Part shown: in pieces, positions 5,180-21,894 of the stretch | Numbering within the stretch: position 1 is the first letter of the stretch | Layout of the letters: every line of letters begins with the position of its first letter | Assembly (NCBI GenBank): GCA_012800155.1 | Contig: JAAZJX010000012.1 | Coordinates: 1 to 32,089 of the forward strand | DNA: 32,089 nt | Reading direction: 5' to 3' | DNA from: Candidatus Magasanikiibacteriota bacterium | Lineage (GTDB): Bacteria; Patescibacteriota; Patescibacteriia; Magasanikbacterales; UBA922 | Position numbers and translations under genes: made by a program | The notes under the pieces: generated by a model | The model's database searches: none | What the model was told of the DNA's origin: nothing | The model's input: only the letters and a program-made list of their open reading frames with translations

Positions 5180-6937
5180 TTATTCTAAAATTTTTATCTT
5201 TAATTCTGCTAATTGTTTTTGTTCAACTTCACTTGGACTACCCATCATTGGTTCTTCAGCTTTTTGATTCTTAGGAAATGGAATTACAGAACGAATATTT
5301 TTTTCTCCCAATAAAACCATCATCAATCTTTCAATTCCTGGAGCAAATCCACAATGTGGCGGCGCTCCAAATTCAAAAGCCTTTATCATGTGACCAAATT
5401 TATTATCTACTACTTGTTTATCATAACCAGCAATTTCAAAAGCTTTATACATAATTTCAGGATTCATATTACGTACTGCTCCTGAAGATAATTCCAAACC
5501 ATTACCAATAATATCATATTGATAAGCTAAAATATCCAAAGGATTTTTAGTTTGTAAAGCTTCCATACCTCCTTGAGGCATAGAAAATGGATTATGACCA
5601 AAATCTATTTTATTTTCTCGTTCATTAAATTCATACATTGGAAAATCTACAATCCAAGCCCAAGCAATTAAATTTGGATCTTTTAAATTTAATTTTTCCC
5701 CTGCTAAATCACGCACTGCTCCAAGAGCTAGACAAGATACTCGCCAATTATCAGCGGAAAAAAATATAATTCCATTTTTATCAATTGCTAATAAATTTTT
5801 TAATTCTGCTAATTGTTCTGAAGTAAAAAACTTAGTCACTCCACCTTCAAAAGTATTATTTTCAAATTTAATCCAAGCCAAACCTTTGGCTCCAATTCGT
5901 TTAGCTTTATCAGTAAATTCCTCATCAATTTCTTTACGAGTAAAAACTTCTCCACCTGGTACAAATAAAGCTCTAATAAATTCTGCTTCTACAAAAACTT
6001 TAAAATCTGTTTTCTTTGCCCAAGTGCTAACCTCAATCATTTTTAAATCAAAACGCAAATCTGGACGATCAGAACCATAATCTTCAAAAACTTGCTTGAA
6101 AGGAATTCTTGGAAAAGGTTTTTGCCAAACTTTTTTATTAGCTATTTTTTCTGTTAATTCAATAAAAAGAGGTTCCATTTCTTGAAAAAATTCTTCTGGT
6201 TCCAAAAAACTAGTTTCTACATCAAGCTGATAAAATTCGCCCGGACTACGATCAGCTCGAGGATCTTCATCACGCATACAAACAGCAATTTGATAATAAC
6301 GATCAAAACCAGCTACCATCAAAAGTTGTTTATATTGTTGTGGAGCTTGTGGTAAAGCATAAAATTTTCCTGGATGAATCCTACTAGGAACAAGAAAATC
6401 ACGAGCGCCTTCTGGTGAAGAAACAGTTAAAACAGGAGTAGCAATATCTACAAAACCTCGCTTATCCATAAAATCACGAATATGACGAATCATTTTTGCG
6501 CGAAACAAAATATTATTTTTCAATTTTTCACGACGCAATTCTAAATAACGATGTTTCAAACGCAATTCTTCATCTTCTTCCTCTTTATGAGCATCAAAAA
6601 TTTCAAAAGGTAAAGTTTTGGCTTTGCTCAAAATAGTTATTTCTTCAGCAATAACTTCTATTTCACCAGTTGAAATATTTTTATTAAAATTTTCTTCTTT
6701 TCTCTTTTCTACTTTTCCTTTTATTCTAATAACATATTCATATTTCAAACTTTCAACAATTGAAAAATCTTTTACTTGATCTGGACTAAAAACTACTTGA
6801 GTCAAACCATAACGATCACGCAAATCAATAAAAATTAAATTCCCCATCTTACGATGCTTGTGAACCCAACCAGACAAAACTACTTCTTGTCCTATAAAAG
6901 ATTTGTTCAATTCCCCACAAGTATTTGTTCTGTACAT
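5180..6937 (-). CDS. aspS: Aspartate--tRNA ligase (probably discriminating)
   Basis: MYRTNTCGEL, FIDLRDRYG, PEGARDFLVPSR, GAPPHCGFAPGIERL. Confidence 0.98.
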   Translation of the reverse strand: MYRTNTCGELNKSFIGQEVVLSGWVHKHRKMGNLIFIDLRDRYGLTQVVFSPDQVKDFSIVESLKYEYVIRIKGKVEKRKEENFNKNISTGEIEVIAEEITILSKAKTLPFEIFDAHKEEEDEELRLKHRYLELRREKLKNNILFRAKMIRHIRDFMDKRGFVDIATPVLTVSSPEGARDFLVPSRIHPGKFYALPQAPQQYKQLLMVAGFDRYYQIAVCMRDEDPRADRSPGEFYQLDVETSFLEPEEFFQEMEPLFIELTEKIANKKVWQKPFPRIPFKQVFEDYGSDRPDLRFDLKMIEVSTWAKKTDFKVFVEAEFIRALFVPGGEVFTRKEIDEEFTDKAKRIGAKGLAWIKFENNTFEGGVTKFFTSEQLAELKNLLAIDKNGIIFFSADNWRVSCLALGAVRDLAGEKLNLKDPNLIAWAWIVDFPMYEFNERENKIDFGHNPFSMPQGGMEALQTKNPLDILAYQYDIIGNGLELSSGAVRNMNPEIMYKAFEIAGYDKQVVDNKFGHMIKAFEFGAPPHCGFAPGIERLMMVLLGEKNIRSVIPFPKNQKAEEPMMGSPSEVEQKQLAELKIKILE

Positions 6938-7043: not shown

Positions 7044-8126
7044 TTATTCTAAAAATTTTTTTCTCATCTTTACTACAAAAAATCCTTCTATTTCCTTAGT
7101 AGGCATTATTCGTAAAGATTTTTTAATAACCTCTTTATTAATCTCTTTTTCATTCCAATTTTTTAAAATTGGCAAACATTTAAAATCTAATAAATCAATA
7201 TCCATTATTTCACAATCTTCTATTCTATCCATAAATCTAGTAATTTGTAATTCATTTTCTTCTGGAGAAAAAGTACAAGTAGAATAAACTAAAATTCCTC
7301 CCGGTTTCAAAGCCTTCCATGCAGATAATAATAATTGTCTTTGTTTATAGGCCATTTCTTTTATTTTTTGTTCTTTCCAATAACCATATGTTTTTGGTTC
7401 ACCTTCTATAAATCTAGCTTCTGCGCTACATGGAGCATCAAGTAAAATCTTATCAAAATATTCAGGATATTCCCGAGTCAAAACTGCACCATGTTCCATA
7501 CGCAATATAAATTTCCAATCATTATTTTGAACAAATTCATTTTTGGTTGAAACAGTCAAAGAATCTTTTTTATTTTTTAAAAGATCTTCTGTTTCTATTT
7601 TTCCAAAATTTTTCTCAGGATAACATAATACTCCTAATACTTCCATATTATGTTTAAGTTTAAAAAAACGAATTTTATTATTATCATTAGCTACTAATTC
7701 ACCTTGTTTATTCATCAAAGCCGCAATCTGAGAAGTCTTACTACCTGGCGCAGCTGTTAAATCCAAAACTTTTTCTCCTGATTTAAGATCCAAAACTAAT
7801 GGTGGCACCATACTAGCTAAACTTTGTATATATATTTTTCCTTCTTTATAAATATCAAGATCAGTCAAATCCCGCTTACTTTTATTTTTCAAAATAAAAG
7901 CTTCTTTATACCAAGATATTCTTTCAAATTTAAAACCATTTTGTTTCAATATCTCAATTACTTCAGTTTGATTAGCTTTTATAGTATTAATTCTAAAAGT
8001 AGTAGGGCGTTTTATAAAAGTAATTTTTATTTGATTAAATAAAGAAACGCCAAACATATTTGTTAGACGTTTTAAAAATTTTTCTGGAAGTCCTTGTAAT
8101 TGTTTTTTATTTTTGTTTTTCCCCAT
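7044..8126 (-). CDS. RsmB/RsmF (NOL1/NOP2/Sun) RNA m5C methyltransferase with a ~36-aa insert
   Basis: VLDLTAAPGSKT, DKILLDAPCS, LVYSTCT, EENE. Confidence 0.93.
   Translation of the reverse strand: MGKNKNKKQLQGLPEKFLKRLTNMFGVSLFNQIKITFIKRPTTFRINTIKANQTEVIEILKQNGFKFERISWYKEAFILKNKSKRDLTDLDIYKEGKIYIQSLASMVPPLVLDLKSGEKVLDLTAAPGSKTSQIAALMNKQGELVANDNNKIRFFKLKHNMEVLGVLCYPEKNFGKIETEDLLKNKKDSLTVSTKNEFVQNNDWKFILRMEHGAVLTREYPEYFDKILLDAPCSAEARFIEGEPKTYGYWKEQKIKEMAYKQRQLLLSAWKALKPGGILVYSTCTFSPEENELQITRFMDRIEDCEIMDIDLLDFKCLPILKNWNEKEINKEVIKKSLRIMPTKEIEGFFVVKMRKKFLE
7518..7625 (-). repeat. Decayed palindromic element inserted in frame
   Basis: TGTTATCCTGAG...GAAGATCT...AGATTCTTTG...TTCAAAATAATG; ends are inverted repeats differing only by transitions. 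Confidence 0.55.
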
Positions 8127-8310: not shown

Positions 8311-9609
8311 TTAAGGTTTTAATCTATTAATCGTTCTAGGAAAAGGAATGCACTCACGAATATGTTCTACACCAGTCATCCAGCGTACCATTCTCTCTAC
8401 ACCAATTCCAAAACCAGAATGTGGAACAGAACCATATTTTCGTAAATCTAAATACCAAGAATATTCTTTTTCACTCATACCACTTTGTTTAATTCTAGAA
8501 AGAAGTAAATCAAAATCATCTTCACGCTGAGATCCACCAATTATTTCTCCAGCACCTTCAATTCCAATTAAATCATCATTCAAAACTCTTGAATCATCTT
8601 CTGGATCAATCTTCATATAAAATGGTTTGATATTTTTATCCCATTTTTCAATAAATACTGGCACTTCAGAATCTTGAGTCAATAATCCTTCATCATCATT
8701 ACCTAAATCTTCACCGTATTTAATATCTGAACCCAAACTTTGCAATTTATTAATTGCTTCTTTGTAAGTTAATCTAGTAAAAGACTTTTCCAAAACTTTT
8801 TTAAGTGGTTCAGTATTTCTCTCCAAAATTCCAAACTCAACTGTACATTCAACTAAACATTTTTTAATAATATATTTTATCAAACCCTCTTGAATTTTTA
8901 AATTTTCCTCATGTTCAATAAAAGCTCCCTCAGCATCCATCATCCAAAATTCTGATAAATGGCGCTTAGTTTTTGATTTTTCAGCTCTAAAGACTGGTCC
9001 AAAATCATAACAACGGCCTACACTTGCAATCGCTGCCTCAATATATAATTGACCAGATTGAGATAAATAAGCTATTCCTTCGTCAAAATATGGTACGGGA
9101 AACAAAGTAGTAGTCCCTTCACAAGCATTAGGAGTAAAAATTGGTGCATCTACTTTTATAAAACCTTCTTGATGTAAATACTCATTAATAGCAGTAATTA
9201 TTACATCACGCACTCGTAAAATTGCCCATTGTTTTTTGGATCGTAACCATAAATGACGATTATCCATAAGAAATTCTGGACCATGTTCTTTTGGACTAAT
9301 TGGATAATCTATTGCTTGTTGAATTAATTTAAAATTTTTAACTTGTAACTCAAAAACTCCTTCTTGTTTTGGATGTTTACTTACTATTCCAGAAATTTCA
9401 ACTGAAGATTCTTGAGTGGTTTTTTCTACCTGTTCCCACATTTCTTCAGAAATATCATTTTTAGAAACTACACATTGAATAAATCCTGATCCATCGCGTA
9501 ACTCTAAAAAAGTGATTGAGCCACTAGAGCGTTTATGATTAAGCCAACCTTTTAAAATCACTTCTTGATTAACAAATTGAGTTAAATCTTTAATAAATGT
9601 TTGTGACAT
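8311..9609 (-). CDS. asnS: Asparagine--tRNA ligase
   Basis: LRDGSG, RHLWLRS, YLSQSGQLY, FRAEKSKTKRHLSEFWM, YGSVPHSGFG. Confidence 0.97.
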   Translation of the reverse strand: MSQTFIKDLTQFVNQEVILKGWLNHKRSSGSITFLELRDGSGFIQCVVSKNDISEEMWEQVEKTTQESSVEISGIVSKHPKQEGVFELQVKNFKLIQQAIDYPISPKEHGPEFLMDNRHLWLRSKKQWAILRVRDVIITAINEYLHQEGFIKVDAPIFTPNACEGTTTLFPVPYFDEGIAYLSQSGQLYIEAAIASVGRCYDFGPVFRAEKSKTKRHLSEFWMMDAEGAFIEHEENLKIQEGLIKYIIKKCLVECTVEFGILERNTEPLKKVLEKSFTRLTYKEAINKLQSLGSDIKYGEDLGNDDEGLLTQDSEVPVFIEKWDKNIKPFYMKIDPEDDSRVLNDDLIGIEGAGEIIGGSQREDDFDLLLSRIKQSGMSEKEYSWYLDLRKYGSVPHSGFGIGVERMVRWMTGVEHIRECIPFPRTINRLKP

Positions 9610-9696
9610 AAAATTTTTATTAAAACTTAGTTAAATAATATCAAATTTAGCTAAAATATACAAGTTTTAAGACTTTTGGCATTGATCTTAAAAGTA

Positions 9697-9725
9697 TTGA
9701 CAAAATTCAAAAAATGTAATATATT
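9697..9725 (+). promoter_or_regulatory. sigma70 promoter for the small ORF
   Basis: TTGACA-17-TATATT. Confidence 0.6.
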
Positions 9726-9802
9726 AAACTTGTTTTATATAAAATACCTAACATTATAAAATAACATATTTTATAATATTGGCTATTTTATAGGAGAAAA
9801 AA

Positions 9803-9961
9803 ATGAGCCAAACTGGATTGATTATTTTATCCTTTACAATCCTAATATTATTAATAACTTACAAAATAAAGCCATTGATATTAAAAATGGTCATTCAATT
9901 CGGAGTCCTTGCCTTAATATTAGGATTAACACTCTTTTTCTACTTTCAGTCATTAAAGTAG
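9803..9961 (+). CDS. 52-aa two-TM membrane protein (absent from the ORF track)
   Basis: MSQTGLIILSFTILILLITYKIKPLILKMVIQFGVLALILGLTLFFYFQSLK; AGGAGA SD, upstream promoter, downstream hairpins. Confidence 0.72.
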   Translation: MSQTGLIILSFTILILLITYKIKPLILKMVIQFGVLALILGLTLFFYFQSLK

Positions 9962-9968
9962 TAGCCAA

Positions 9969-9993
9969 GGGGGAGGAATGGAGAACCTCCCCC
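9969..9993. other. GC-rich hairpin after the small ORF
   Basis: GGGGGAGG-9nt-CCTCCCCC. Confidence 0.65.
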
Positions 9994-10053
9994 AAACCCC
10001 ATCATAAAAAGTGAATTAAATCACTCTTTCAAATTATTAAAATAATTAAAAAT

Positions 10054-10086
10054 ATATAAACCTGTATTGTTAATACAGGTTTATAT
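10054..10086. terminator. Bidirectional terminator
   Basis: Perfect 15-bp arms ATATAAACCTGTATT-GTT-AATACAGGTTTATAT with A/T-rich flanks, between convergent units. Confidence 0.75.
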
Positions 10087-10124
10087 TTTATTTTATCAAT
10101 TATTCCTTTTATTAATTATTAAAA

Positions 10125-10168
10125 TCAAACCTACAACTTTATATTAACAATATATTGTTCTTGCAATT
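10125..10168 (-). pseudogene. tRNA-Asn relic A
   Basis: 34/44 identity (1 gap) to the intact tRNA-Asn; 7 of 10 differences are GC-to-AT transitions. Confidence 0.65.
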
Positions 10169-10223
10169 ATTAGTTCAAAGTTAATTCATCTTAAACAAAA
10201 ATTACTTTAACTACCAAAATAAA

Positions 10224-10383
10224 CTCAAACCTACAATAACCGCGTTAACCTGTCTACCAATCGCCTTGCTCTCCCGGTAGGGCTCGAACCTACAACATCT
10301 GCATTAACAGTGCAGTGTTCTACCAATTGAACTACAGGAGAGCATGACGGACAGACAGCGCATTATTACACCAACTCAACTAC
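10224..10383 (-). pseudogene. tRNA-Asn relic B, split at the anticodon loop (10224-10249 + 10357-10383)
   Basis: Joined halves align ungapped 41/53 to the intact tRNA-Asn and restore the CT-GTT-AA loop. Confidence 0.75.
10269..10341 (-). tRNA. tRNA-Asn(GTT), CCA not encoded
   Basis: TCTCCTG/CGGGAGA+G; D arm GTTC/GAAC; CTGCA-CTGTTAA-TGCAG; GTAGG-TTCGAGC-CCTAC. Confidence 0.97.
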
Positions 10384-10385
10384 TC

Positions 10386-10416
10386 AAAATAAAATACCCA
10401 CCGATCGGTGGGTATT
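10386..10416 (-). terminator. Attenuator terminator upstream of tRNA-Asn
   Basis: Perfect 24-bp palindrome AATACCCACCGATCGGTGGGTATT (10393-10416) running into TTATTTT on minus. Confidence 0.8.
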
Positions 10417-10433
10417 ATCTAAAAAAATAAAAA

Positions 10434-10511
10434 CTATACCACACCATCGGGAGATAACAAATTATTATTGTTATTTAATTGTCGCAAAGACAATTTTGAA
10501 TATAGTTTCAT
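10434..10511 (-). CDS. Putative poly-Asn leader peptide MKLYSKLSLRQLNNNNNLLSPDGVV
   Basis: 25 codons; AAT AAC AAT AAT AAT at 10461-10475; 3' end is complementary to the terminator 5' arm. Confidence 0.72.
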   Translation of the reverse strand: MKLYSKLSLRQLNNNNNLLSPDGVV

Positions 10512-10519
10512 ATATTTTT

Positions 10520-10547
10520 ATTTTAGCACTTAAATTTTAATTGTCAA
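10520..10547 (-). promoter_or_regulatory. sigma70 promoter for the leader peptide/tRNA-Asn unit
   Basis: TTGACA-16-TAAAAT with extended -10 TG; ATG 8 nt after the -10 box. Confidence 0.75.
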
Positions 10548-10601
10548 ATATAACTGTTGATAAATAAAAATTACAAAAAAATATTATTATAAAATAAAAA
10601 A

Positions 10602-11225
10602 TCAAGAAAAAACAAAAGAACCCCAATCATTAATTTTTTTTCCAATTTGAAACACTAAAAATTTATAAATTAATCTATGCAATTTTTCATACTCTCCTTT
10701 TTCAAATTTCAAATTAAAAATCAATTGCCAATCTCCTTCTAATAAAATAGTCAAATCTTTTTTCAACTCCCTACTCGTTTTTTCTACAGAAACAATATCT
10801 AAACCAAGATAAAATAATAATTTCACCACAAAACCATCCACCATAACTAATTTTATCTCTGAACAATTATTCACAAATTTCAACCAACTTTTTAATAATA
10901 TAAAAATTCTTTTATCTTTTTCTTCTATTTCCAATATTTTATTTAATAAACTTACTATAAACCCAGCTATCAAACTTTTTTGTAAATCTTGTCTAATATT
11001 TATAAAATAATCTATACTCTGCACTGCACCTAAATGATTCAATTCTTTACCTTTAATAATTTCTAATTCAACATAGGAAAACGGCTCTAAATGAGCCGAA
11101 TTTTTACTAATTATTTTTTTTACTCCCTTAGCCAAAACTTCCATTTTTCCTTTTTCTAAAGTTAAAAAAGAAATAATTTGATCTGATTCACGAAAATCAC
11201 GGCGTGCTAAAATTATCGCTTGCAT
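10602..11225 (-). CDS. recO: DNA repair protein RecO (short)
   Basis: AIILARRDFRESDQIISFLT...GKMEVLAKGVKK...LEPF OB-fold signature. Confidence 0.93.
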   Translation of the reverse strand: MQAIILARRDFRESDQIISFLTLEKGKMEVLAKGVKKIISKNSAHLEPFSYVELEIIKGKELNHLGAVQSIDYFINIRQDLQKSLIAGFIVSLLNKILEIEEKDKRIFILLKSWLKFVNNCSEIKLVMVDGFVVKLLFYLGLDIVSVEKTSRELKKDLTILLEGDWQLIFNLKFEKGEYEKLHRLIYKFLVFQIGKKINDWGSFVFS

Positions 11226-20735: not shown

Positions 20736-21023
20736 TTATTTTGCTTTCTTTTGTTCTTTTGCCATTTTACCACCATGGCTTATAAATTTACGAGTTGGAG
20801 AAAATTCTCCCATTTTATGACCTACCATATTTTCATCTACATATACTGGTAAAAAATCTTTTCCATTATGAACAGAAAAAGTCATGCCTACCATTTCAGG
20901 AGTGATAGTACAAGCACGAGCCCAAGTTTTAATAGGCTTTCGTTCACCAGTTTTTATTGCATTCATGACCTTTTTTAAAAGTTTTTCATCTACATAAGGT
21001 CCTTTTTTCAAACTTCTTGACAT
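20736..21023 (-). CDS. rpsS: Ribosomal protein uS19
   Basis: [25 protein letters not shown]. Confidence 0.99.
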
Positions 21024-21051
21024 AACTTTTATTTAAACTATTTTTTAATTA

Positions 21052-21894
21052 TTATGTTTTTCTTTTTCTTCTTTGAACAATAAATTTATTACTCCACTTA
21101 TTTGGTTTTCTACTCTTAACACCGCGAGCCAATTTACCCCATTTTGTTTTTGGACCGCTCTTTAAACCAATTGGATTGCGTCCTTCACCACCACCATGAG
21201 GGTGATCGCAAGGATTCATACTCTTTCCTTTTACAGTAGGCTTAATACCTCTGTGTCTCATTCTTCCAGCTTTGCCCCATCTTACTAAAGAATAATCAGG
21301 ATTACTCACTTGTCCAATAGTAGCAAAACAATTTTTTAAAATTTTTCTTACTTCTCCAGAAGGTAATTTAATCTGAGCATAATCTCCTTCAATTACTTGT
21401 AACTGAGCAGAATTACCAGCACCACGAACTATTTGTCCACCTTTTCCAGGAGTTAATTCAATATTATGTACAAATAAACCAACTGGAATATTTTCCAAAG
21501 TTGTTCTATTACCAATCTTGGCTTCAATCTTTTTAGCACTAGATATTATTTTGTCACCTACTTTTATTCCATTTGGAGCCAAAAAATAAGCTTTTTTACC
21601 ATTAGTATATTCCACTAAGATTATTCTTGCTCCTCTATTTGGATCATATTCAATAGCTTTTACTTCAGCTTCAACATCAAAAATATTTCTTTTGAAATCA
21701 ACTTTTCTATACATTTTTTTAGCTCCACCGCCCTGATGACGAACAGTAATTCTTCCAGTATTATTTCTTCCAGCTTTCTTTTTTAATGGTTCAATCAATG
21801 ATTTTTCTGGAGTAGTTTTGGTAATATCAGAAAAATCTTGAACACTTGATTTGCGTCTGCCCGGTGTAGTTGGTTTGTGTAATTTAATAGTCAT
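21052..21894 (-). CDS. rplB: Ribosomal protein uL2
   Basis: [31 protein letters not shown]. Confidence 0.99.

Follow-up and report, generated by a model that had tools for sequence, protein, structure and literature searches.

A candidate leaderless Asn-codon attenuator in front of a tRNA-Asn gene in Candidatus Magasanikiibacteriota and related bacteria

We report that a stretch of 32,089 nucleotides from a Candidatus Magasanikiibacteriota bacterium (contig JAAZJX010000012.1 of assembly GCA_012800155.1; here referred to as the window) carries, on its minus strand and in front of the gene for tRNA-Asn (anticodon GTT), an element of approximately 170 nt with a consensus promoter which, judging from its sequence and that of its relatives, very probably is a ribosome-mediated, leaderless transcription attenuator that senses the supply of asparaginyl-tRNA (Asn-tRNA) and gates the tRNA-Asn gene. 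The anatomy of the element, its conservation, the co-variation of its two alternative helices and the positions of its start, control and stop codons can be read directly from the sequences. The usual class of attenuator targets, i.e. genes for biosynthesis, transport or aminoacyl-tRNA synthetases, is not what sits directly behind the terminator; tRNA-Asn does.

Specifically, the promoter scores 11 out of 12 in a consensus scan, the top value among the 32 promoter-like sites on the minus strand between positions 8000 and 12000 (for coordinates of all features see Table 1). The ATG of the leader open reading frame (ORF; 10511-10509) follows 8 nt past the -10 box and lacks a Shine-Dalgarno sequence, and the ORF, which encodes MKLYSKLSLRQLNNNNNLLSPDGVV, ends with a TAG stop codon at 10436-10434. 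Downstream lies the sequence AATACCCACC-GATC-GGTGGGTATT (10416-10393) followed by TTATTTTG, i.e. a perfectly palindromic hairpin with a T tract and a predicted stability of -15.1 kcal/mol, and the distance from the end of its stem to the tRNA is 51 nt with the T tract counted. A second, mutually exclusive helix is formed when the G+C-rich segment 2, CCGATGGTGTGGTAT (10450-10436), at the 3' end of the ORF pairs with ATACCCACCGATCGG (10415-10401) in the terminator 5' arm; this duplex has a predicted energy of -13.5 kcal/mol (p = 0.03 compared with shuffled sequences). The unconstrained minimum free energy (MFE) fold of 10515-10380 is in fact the antiterminator and not the terminator (-35.7 kcal/mol, z = -4.4, equalled by none of 200 shuffles). 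A preliminary description of this DNA had listed the promoter TTGACA-16-TAAAAT, the ATG, the ORF and five tandem Asn codons, and every coordinate was reproduced base for base; the pairing of the ORF 3' end with the terminator 5' arm that it had drawn is formed in the MFE fold, the terminator with its T tract was located where it had been placed, as was the tRNA-Asn gene that it had put approximately 45 nt further on (the spacer is 44 nt), and the two 7-bp hairpins that it had noted within the ORF are present in the computed fold.

In the mechanism that we propose, the strong sigma-70-type promoter would start the RNA at, or a few bases from, the AUG and thus give a leaderless mRNA, on which the ribosome would translate a peptide of approximately 16 to 25 codons with a run of five to seven Asn codons as its sole conserved content. 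When Asn-tRNA is plentiful the ribosome would arrive at the stop codon and cover segment 2, segments 3 and 4 would then fold into the terminator and the polymerase would halt at the T tract. When Asn-tRNA is scarce, an early stall in the Asn run would leave segment 2 free to pair with segment 3 and the polymerase would read into tRNA-Asn; in some genomes the read-through would reach asnS, and in a few the gene behind the leader would instead be that of asparagine synthetase A. Such a sensor would read the delivery of Asn-tRNA to the ribosome, which should drop if either asparagine or tRNA-Asn is short, and the outcome would be negative feedback on charged, hence also on total, tRNA-Asn. Translation of the leader ORF, the stalling, the efficiency of termination and the physiological signal are what we infer here.

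When the 361-nt region was subjected to BLAST against 40 relatives only the tRNA part matched, i.e. the leader DNA could not be aligned outside the tRNA, and the comparison was therefore made by position and not by alignment. The 400 nt before tRNA-Asn were nevertheless found to share one design in the nine relatives matched by BLAST, without exception: a TTGACA promoter is followed approximately 37 nt on by the ATG of a short ORF with five to seven Asn codons, a G+C-rich box lies at its stop codon, and a G+C-rich hairpin with a T tract precedes the tRNA. Likewise, an Asn-rich ORF and a terminator were present at all 24 distinct tRNA-Asn loci retrieved with the tRNA sequence of the window. The 74-nt tRNA query found a match in just 31 of 121 genomes of the order and is biased to the leader-linked paralogue; hence we built a covariance model of tRNA-Asn (R2), with which the family was sampled free of that bias, and R1 denotes the corresponding covariance model of the leader. 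Together, the searches with the tRNA sequence, R1 and R2 gathered 69 distinct units, including units from other genera, families and classes of the phylum; the genomes are related and the counts given for these units are accordingly not numbers of independent events. Among the first 24 loci three (L023, L030 and L035) do not have TTGAC at the set distance and were dropped from the analyses of the first set (n = 21), while units lacking a terminator as defined by our rule (e.g. L189 and L110) are outside the 69. Locus L043 (genome G201), whose promoter-proximal ATG opens a frame other than that of the Asn run, was not counted either; its run adjoins seven consecutive A residues, and the shift is due either to a misassembled homopolymer or to a genuine frameshift.

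Among the 69 units the predicted peptides vary between 6 and 25 amino acids (median 16) with 3 to 8 Asn residues (median 6), and the Asn run is the only part of the peptide that is conserved. TTGAC is present 33-41 nt upstream of an in-frame ATG in 59 of the units. The regions of the Asn run hold in total 311 AAT and 85 AAC codons, and where a run is interrupted it is by whole codons; this synonymous variation together with the whole-codon interruptions argues for selection on decoding and not on an A-rich RNA. In the genome of the window itself, only one of the 43 tRNA genes identified by ARAGORN has a short upstream ORF with a run of its own codon, and that gene is tRNA-Asn.

Both helices of the proposed switch co-vary. 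In 64 sequences aligned with R1 the five pairs of the terminator core are formed in 97.8% of the cells and all five show compensatory changes; cells changed on both sides number 63 compared with 11.6 in shuffled alignments, and none of 500 shuffles reaches 63. An alignment fitted to a model favours the modelled structure, and a sliding control, in which shifting the terminator partner by one to three columns abolished the co-variation signal, argues that the signal is real. Segment 2 is out of register in the alignment, so for the antiterminator we used helix-level shuffles and partner swaps instead of per-column co-variation of segments 2 and 3: for each unit we computed the best duplex that the terminator 5' arm with its loop can form with the sequence running from the last Asn codon up to the terminator. 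The median energy of this duplex for the 69 units is -14.7 kcal/mol, compared with -11.4 kcal/mol for the terminator hairpins, and against 200 dinucleotide shuffles per unit the duplex outperforms the shuffle mean in 67 units and reaches p <= 0.05 in 49. When the segment 2 stretches were paired with terminators of other units the mean dropped from -14.2 kcal/mol (own terminator) to -9.2 kcal/mol; the own terminator was within the best 10% in 46 of the 69 units, and none of 5000 permutations matched the observed mean. The swaps are informative since there are 34 different 5-nt terminator cores, and although kinship among the sequences inflates both the shuffle and the swap tests, the effect is large. 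Local folds also have a 1:2 helix (segment 2 with the sequence just upstream) in 53 of the 69 units, with energies that are no better than those of shuffled sequences (median z = -0.59), and a T-rich stretch (at least five T in 8 nt) follows segment 2 in 39 units.

Stop codon and segment 2 are linked in position. The former is on or beside the latter in 68 of the 69 units, and in as many segment 2 lies inside the footprint (-12 to +14 nt) of a ribosome whose A site is occupied by the stop codon, so that a terminating ribosome would cover it; segment 2 starts at a median of 7 nt past the last Asn codon. We computed equilibrium (not kinetic) folds with 30 nt blocked per ribosome (assumed footprint -15 to +14 nt). 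With the stop codon in the A site the terminator was formed in 65 of the 69 units, compared with 18, 21 and 25 with the first, second and third Asn codon in the A site, respectively; with the last Asn codon there it was formed in 59, and in free RNA without a ribosome in 33. The first 21 units gave the terminator in 21 (stop codon), 2 (second Asn codon) and 5 (third Asn codon) cases. Such a pattern, with termination after completed translation and read-through after an early stall, follows the logic of classical attenuation. The comparison that the preliminary description had set out beforehand, i.e. a search among relatives for short ORFs enriched in cognate codons and for co-varying 2:3 and 3:4 helices, came out in its favour and has now given 69 units. 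Taken together, conservation, co-variation and geometry support a predicted attenuator of the trpL/hisL type that gates tRNA-Asn, as had been suggested.

To determine how widespread the arrangement is, we analysed samples of the family, the class and the phylum. The family sample, which is unbiased, comprises 41 genomes, of which 38 have a tRNA-Asn match of at least 76 bits; the tRNA-Asn gene is linked to a leader in 32 of these 38. Nine of the 32 leader-bearing genomes have a second tRNA-Asn gene with a plain promoter, and in the other 23, this genome included, the leader-linked gene(s) is the sole tRNA-Asn found. In the class sample R1 matched with at least 45 bits at 24 places in 22 of 151 genomes, and in all 20 leader-bearing class genomes that were checked a second high-scoring match is a tRNA-Asn gene in a context without a leader. 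These unlinked genes are often located directly after an rpoD-like gene (identified by eye from its translated C-terminus) and more often encode CCA. The two types of tRNA-Asn also differ in the D stem, which is GTTC/GAAC in 65 of 69 leader-linked genes and GCTC/GAGC in 74 of 91 unlinked ones; that paralogue types follow linkage shows that the linkage to the leader is old and vertically inherited.

In the phylum sample R1 gave matches with E <= 1e-4 in 10 of 151 genomes, eight of which are outside the order to which the window belongs. Two of the eight are Asn leaders directly before tRNA-Asn and one precedes a gene for asparagine synthetase A, while two are Asn-rich ORFs for which the 150 nt that were read contained no tRNA, two have no Asn ORF, and one is a His-containing ORF approximately 90 nt before tRNA-His. 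Moreover, one genome for each of 185,579 species was scanned for five Asn codons located 70-100 nt before a TAGTTCAR..GGTAGAAC D arm, which returned 39 stretches. Among these, 22 are titled Magasanikbacteria/Magasanikiibacteriota, Komeilibacteria, Kuenenbacteria, Parcubacteria or Patescibacteria group and 15 'uncultured Gammaproteobacteria bacterium', all from one bulk re-assembly series; apart from these 15 no record named for another phylum was found with this strict pattern, the count being a lower bound. The leaders in the 15 records are of the same kind as those in the records with Patescibacteria titles and some share recO or asnS neighbours, which makes the Gammaproteobacteria label suspect.

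Which gene the element serves is central to its interpretation. At 21 of the 22 loci returned for R1 matches of at least 45 bits in the class sample the gene past the terminator is tRNA-Asn. A different view is that asnS is the primary target and that the tRNA is just a passenger within an asnS operon leader, as in a synthetase attenuator of the pheM-pheST kind. It draws on the location of asnS on the same strand past the tRNA, 659 nt away in the window (a nuance that goes beyond the preliminary description), 111-244 nt away in four units (L004, L011, L031 and L088, with 129 nt in L088, which belongs to another class) and approximately 1.1-1.2 kb away in two, and on the terminator scan, which found none between tRNA and asnS in L004, L011 and L031. 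However, only 7 of the 42 units with at least 900 nt of flanking sequence have a downstream asnS in the same orientation; elsewhere the next gene is on the opposite strand (e.g. L119, L008, L010, L005 and L097) or a terminator follows directly after the tRNA (e.g. L105, L024, L035, L008, L010 and L088). In the window itself the interval between the two genes contains a 15-bp hairpin with a T run (10086-10054), which likely marks the end of the tRNA transcription unit. The conserved target would thus be the tRNA, and we consider it improbable that asnS is the primary one; some units may also feed asnS, and the asnS gene in the window is a possible secondary target through read-through. Independent support that the module reports on Asn supply comes from leaders of the same build in front of genes for asparagine synthetase A of 308-309 amino acids (NF005054, 322 and 335 bits, cut-off 309) in L070 of the same class and L085 of a different class.

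Promoter, ORF and terminator might instead make up a gene in its own right, for a small RNA or for a small protein rich in Asn, next to a separately transcribed tRNA. From promoter to terminator the unit is self-contained and would yield an RNA of approximately 125 nt, the terminator and the tRNA are 51 nt apart in the window, and terminated leader RNAs in trp-type systems elsewhere can, according to the accessible parts of two reports, act as small RNAs (PMC7968998, 10.1101/606483). Yet the distance from the end of the terminator stem to the tRNA, T tract included, is at most 15 nt in 24 and at most 25 nt in 40 of the 69 units, and in the former there is no space for a separate tRNA promoter. 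Nor does a small protein agree with a conservation that is limited to the Asn run, the co-variation of segment 2 with the terminator arm would be purposeless in a plain terminator, and the stop codon keeps its position relative to segment 2. This possibility therefore appears remote to us.

A marginally poorer candidate still is an untranslated RNA element, in which the Asn run would act as a T-box-like specifier or as an A-rich partner for the U-rich sequence downstream of segment 2. In the window AAUAACAA does pair with UUGUUAU (10474-10454), similar pairings are seen in several relatives, and the missing Shine-Dalgarno sequence would be in keeping with an RNA that is not translated. Against this stand the ATG at a set distance from TTGAC and in frame with the run, the variation confined to third codon positions and the in-frame stop codon on segment 2. 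Moreover, searching the region 9500-10700 with cmscan against Rfam 15 at E <= 10 gave 17 matches, among which only the tRNA was above threshold and none was a T-box. Over 10380-10547 the best Rfam matches are rli38 (21.1 bits, threshold 49) and mir-454 (20.2 bits, threshold 60), and the terminator hairpin accounts for both, while the best match among the leader families is a leu/phe leader elsewhere, at 9956-10092 (18.9 bits, threshold 70). Chance, i.e. AAT runs that are common at 25-30% G+C together with a hairpin that terminates a recO operon, can point to the low G+C content of the window (24-33% almost everywhere) and to a recO-like gene that ends 186 nt ahead of the hairpin, with no other terminator found for it in the scan, and is in our view virtually negligible given one such ORF among 43 tRNA genes, 69 units whose matched stretches span approximately 0.22 to 0.46 G+C with different genes upstream, the partner permutation, and an all-species scan with so few matches and so narrow a range of names.

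Several observations weigh against the attenuator that we favour, or set bounds to it. The folds are equilibrium calculations with an assumed footprint, and since the terminator forms in most of them with the last Asn codon occupying the A site, induction would require an early stall. The free RNA adopts the antiterminator in the window and the terminator in less than half of the units, so an untranslated RNA may read through, which is unlike trp, and the classical 1:2 helix is weak. Leaderless AUG translation is established in bacteria in general, and we had expected leaderless mRNAs to be common in this genome as support for the proposed start; this was overturned, since just 2 of 80 promoter-proximal long ORFs begin 5-10 nt past the -10 box, i.e. 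such a start is not the rule here. With respect to distribution, six of the 38 family genomes (G006, G013, G014, G020, G429 and G430) have no leader, and among 40 further class genomes the leader is absent before the best-scoring tRNA-Asn in 38 and present in 2. Finally, the gene in the window is the only tRNA-Asn found in the assembly, the next R2 matches (69 bits) being tRNA-Phe and tRNA-Thr, and a sole tRNA-Asn behind a terminator of -15 kcal/mol is unusual and needs a sizeable basal read-through. The assembly consists of 100 contigs and is incomplete for tRNAs, as ARAGORN did not find tRNA-His, and may thus lack a second tRNA-Asn copy present in the genome. In L072 (genome G233) a second Asn leader is located 3.4 kb from the first; the sequence behind it resembles tRNA-Asn but carries approximately 60 nt of inserted sequence after the anticodon stem and was not called by ARAGORN.

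On its plain reading the attenuator would use feedback to keep tRNA-Asn at a given level, and a strong promoter throttled by a terminator, together with the 23 family genomes in which the leader-linked gene is the sole copy, fits with this. A more far-reaching version, which we put forward tentatively and hold to be rather unlikely, is that tRNA-Asn is itself a biosynthetic gene and is regulated accordingly: Asn would be made on the tRNA, and starvation would induce its own scaffold. The assembly encodes AsnRS, a bacterial-type AspRS, GatA and GatB, and no recognisable AsnA (of either type) or AsnB was found when it was searched for these. An AsnB-like match turned out to be MnmA, and a second class-II synthetase-like gene, on contig 80, which had been a candidate asparagine synthetase, is EpmA. 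If the AspRS is non-discriminating, Asn would be made only on tRNA-Asn, by amidation of Asp-tRNA(Asn) by GatCAB; against this, GatCAB may be present for Gln alone. Relatives that keep both paralogue types would on this version have one constitutive gene and one starvation-inducible reserve and, in more general terms, tRNA-Asn would be the first tRNA gene placed in a closed control loop by how well its own product decodes.

To our knowledge, bacterial tRNA genes are generally thought to be controlled globally, by growth rate and the stringent response, and not species by species. An Asn tRNA gene gated by the decoding of Asn codons would represent specific feedback on a single tRNA species. It would also extend leader-peptide attenuation to a new class of target, a new amino acid and the ultrasmall Patescibacteria-type bacteria, in which regulation is almost unexplored. 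Because the whole element is short and has a consensus promoter, the hypothesis is open to direct testing in vitro.

R1 also matched units of the same build (promoter, ATG approximately 37 nt on, short ORF, G+C-rich box and terminator) with runs of other codons, in L057 (G265), L074, L075 and L076 (G267), and L089 (G369). These comprise His runs (MKNLKAQINHHIHF, ending in a stop codon, and MTLNNLSQLHHHTLF..) before a PRTase-like ORF, a Phe run (MKNLTKNFAFFFFGAS..), a Tyr run (MKILNFSAKYYYNQAVLP, then a stop codon), a Pro run (MRQILPPKLTVTQST, then a stop codon) before a gene for pyrroline-5-carboxylate reductase, and an ORF with two His codons approximately 90 nt before tRNA-His (L089). A wider family of leaderless sensors in these genomes is possible, to judge from these sequences. 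In the window a promoter-like TTGACA with an ATG 37 nt on and an ORF encoding MFFFFFFEQ followed by a stop codon is present on the plus strand at 21017-21080; as a further leader this poly-Phe ORF was rejected, since it is antisense to a coding region and the scan gave no terminator, and it is probably due to chance.

The surroundings of the element in the window are summarized in Table 1. The stop codon of the recO-like gene is 55 nt ahead of the -35 box, and recO is upstream also in 8 of the first loci examined. Downstream of tRNA-Asn, asnS is followed on the same strand by genes for an RNA methyltransferase of the RsmB/NOP2 family (7044-8126) and a bacterial-type aspS (5180-6937). The present tRNA-Asn gene is lodged between the two halves of an older tRNA-Asn of the GTAGTTGAG..GGTACAAC type, which looks as if it had been split at its anticodon loop. 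The spacer past the terminator is the 5' half of this older gene, which bears out the earlier suggestion that the linkage is old, and the closest relative (L022) has the same 5' relic, ending with CCTGCCCGCCATGC. Partial 5' fragments of tRNA-Asn are located just upstream of many tRNA-Asn genes of the class, both in spacers between terminator and tRNA (L098, L117, L119, L120, L041, L009, L048, L185, L200, L141, L184, L191, L196 and L197) and at further loci (L104, L106, L108, L111, L127, L128, L133, L139, L143 and L180; in L108 the flank is duplicated as well). What follows them is often the motif CTGCCTGCCCGCC or else, at the D loop, an insertion of one or two small G+C-rich hairpins, and this suggests recurrent insertion or replacement events that target the tRNA-Asn gene.

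Table 1. Coordinates of the putative attenuator, its tRNA-Asn gene and neighbouring features in the window
Feature	Position	Strand	Basis
Promoter: -35 TTGACA (10547-10542), 16-nt spacer, TG ahead of the -10 box, -10 TAAAAT (10525-10520)	10520..10547	-	consensus scan
Leader ORF, 25 codons, leaderless	10434..10511	-	ORF reading
Control codons AAT AAC AAT AAT AAT, five consecutive Asn codons	10461..10475	-	sequence reading
Segment 2 (5' half of the antiterminator), CCGATGGTGTGGTAT, G+C-rich, overlaps the last ORF codons and the stop codon	10436..10450	-	MFE fold
Intrinsic terminator: perfect 10-bp palindromic stem, segments 3 and 4 (10416-10393), T tract 10392-10386	10386..10416	-	
Spacer, 44 nt, from T tract to tRNA	10342..10385	-	5' relic of older tRNA-Asn
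tRNA-Asn, anticodon GTT	10268..10341	-	ARAGORN; Rfam tRNA 70.1 bits
recO-like gene, upstream	10602..11225	-	Pfam RecO_N and RecO_C
Relic, 5' half of older tRNA-Asn (acceptor, D arm, 5' anticodon stem)	~10342-10392	-	aligns with L010 tRNA-Asn and the equivalent spacer of L022
Relic, 3' half of older tRNA-Asn (anticodon loop to T arm)	10200..10267	-	alignment
15-bp hairpin, T runs on both strands	10054..10086	-	terminator scan
asnS (asparagine-tRNA ligase), 659 nt past the tRNA	8311..9609	-	NF003037, 530 bits (cut-off 414); TIGR00457, 469 bits

Leader-peptide attenuators of amino-acid operons, such as trpL, hisL, pheL, leuL, thrL and the ilv leaders, are well known and several are Rfam families. 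As in the trp, his and phe attenuators, the element described here combines a short ORF that carries a control-codon run with a terminator and with an antiterminator that shares the 5' arm of the terminator, and the position of the ribosome sets the structure, in our case as judged from computed folds. It differs from the attenuators of amino-acid operons in having a tRNA as its target, Asn as its control codons, a predicted leaderless mRNA and a weak 1:2 helix, and in its occurrence in a Patescibacteria-type lineage. T-box riboswitches (RF00230) bind uncharged tRNA directly and need no translation. In common with these the Asn element would sense the charging of one tRNA species by means of a terminator/antiterminator switch, whereas in our proposal it depends on translation, and it has no T-box match at E <= 10; we know of no T-box that controls a tRNA gene.

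In pheM-pheST a leader-peptide attenuator precedes synthetase genes, and a His leader peptide has been described before hisS paralogues in bacilli (PMC2965389, as far as its accessible text goes). The Asn element resembles these in that an attenuator is located before a translation gene for the same amino acid, and it is set apart from them by a tRNA gene right behind the terminator and, in most cases, no synthetase gene after it. The accessible text of the same 2010 survey of premature terminators, by Naville and Gautheret, gives leader peptides as known from Proteobacteria and Actinobacteria only, besides its own hisS case from Firmicutes, and the phrase 'tRNA gene' does not occur in that part of it. 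We also considered a Phe leader at E. coli pheU/pheV as a precedent, and dropped it since pheV of K-12 has its promoter directly before the tRNA and no such ORF. Searches of full-text literature, whose coverage leaves out most subscription journals and old scans, returned no account of Asn leaders, nor of any tRNA gene preceded by an attenuator or leader peptide. The element thus appears to be undescribed, and it would be new because its conserved target is a tRNA gene.

The nearest published analogue that we found, as described in the accessible part of its report, is the polycysteine leaderless short ORFs of mycobacteria, which act on the translation of downstream cysteine genes (Canestrari et al., bioRxiv 10.1101/834739). 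These share with the Asn element a leaderless ORF with a run of one codon as a stalling sensor, and a sensor that is common to several loci; the Asn element, in contrast to what that text describes, would have an intrinsic terminator as its output and a tRNA gene as its target.

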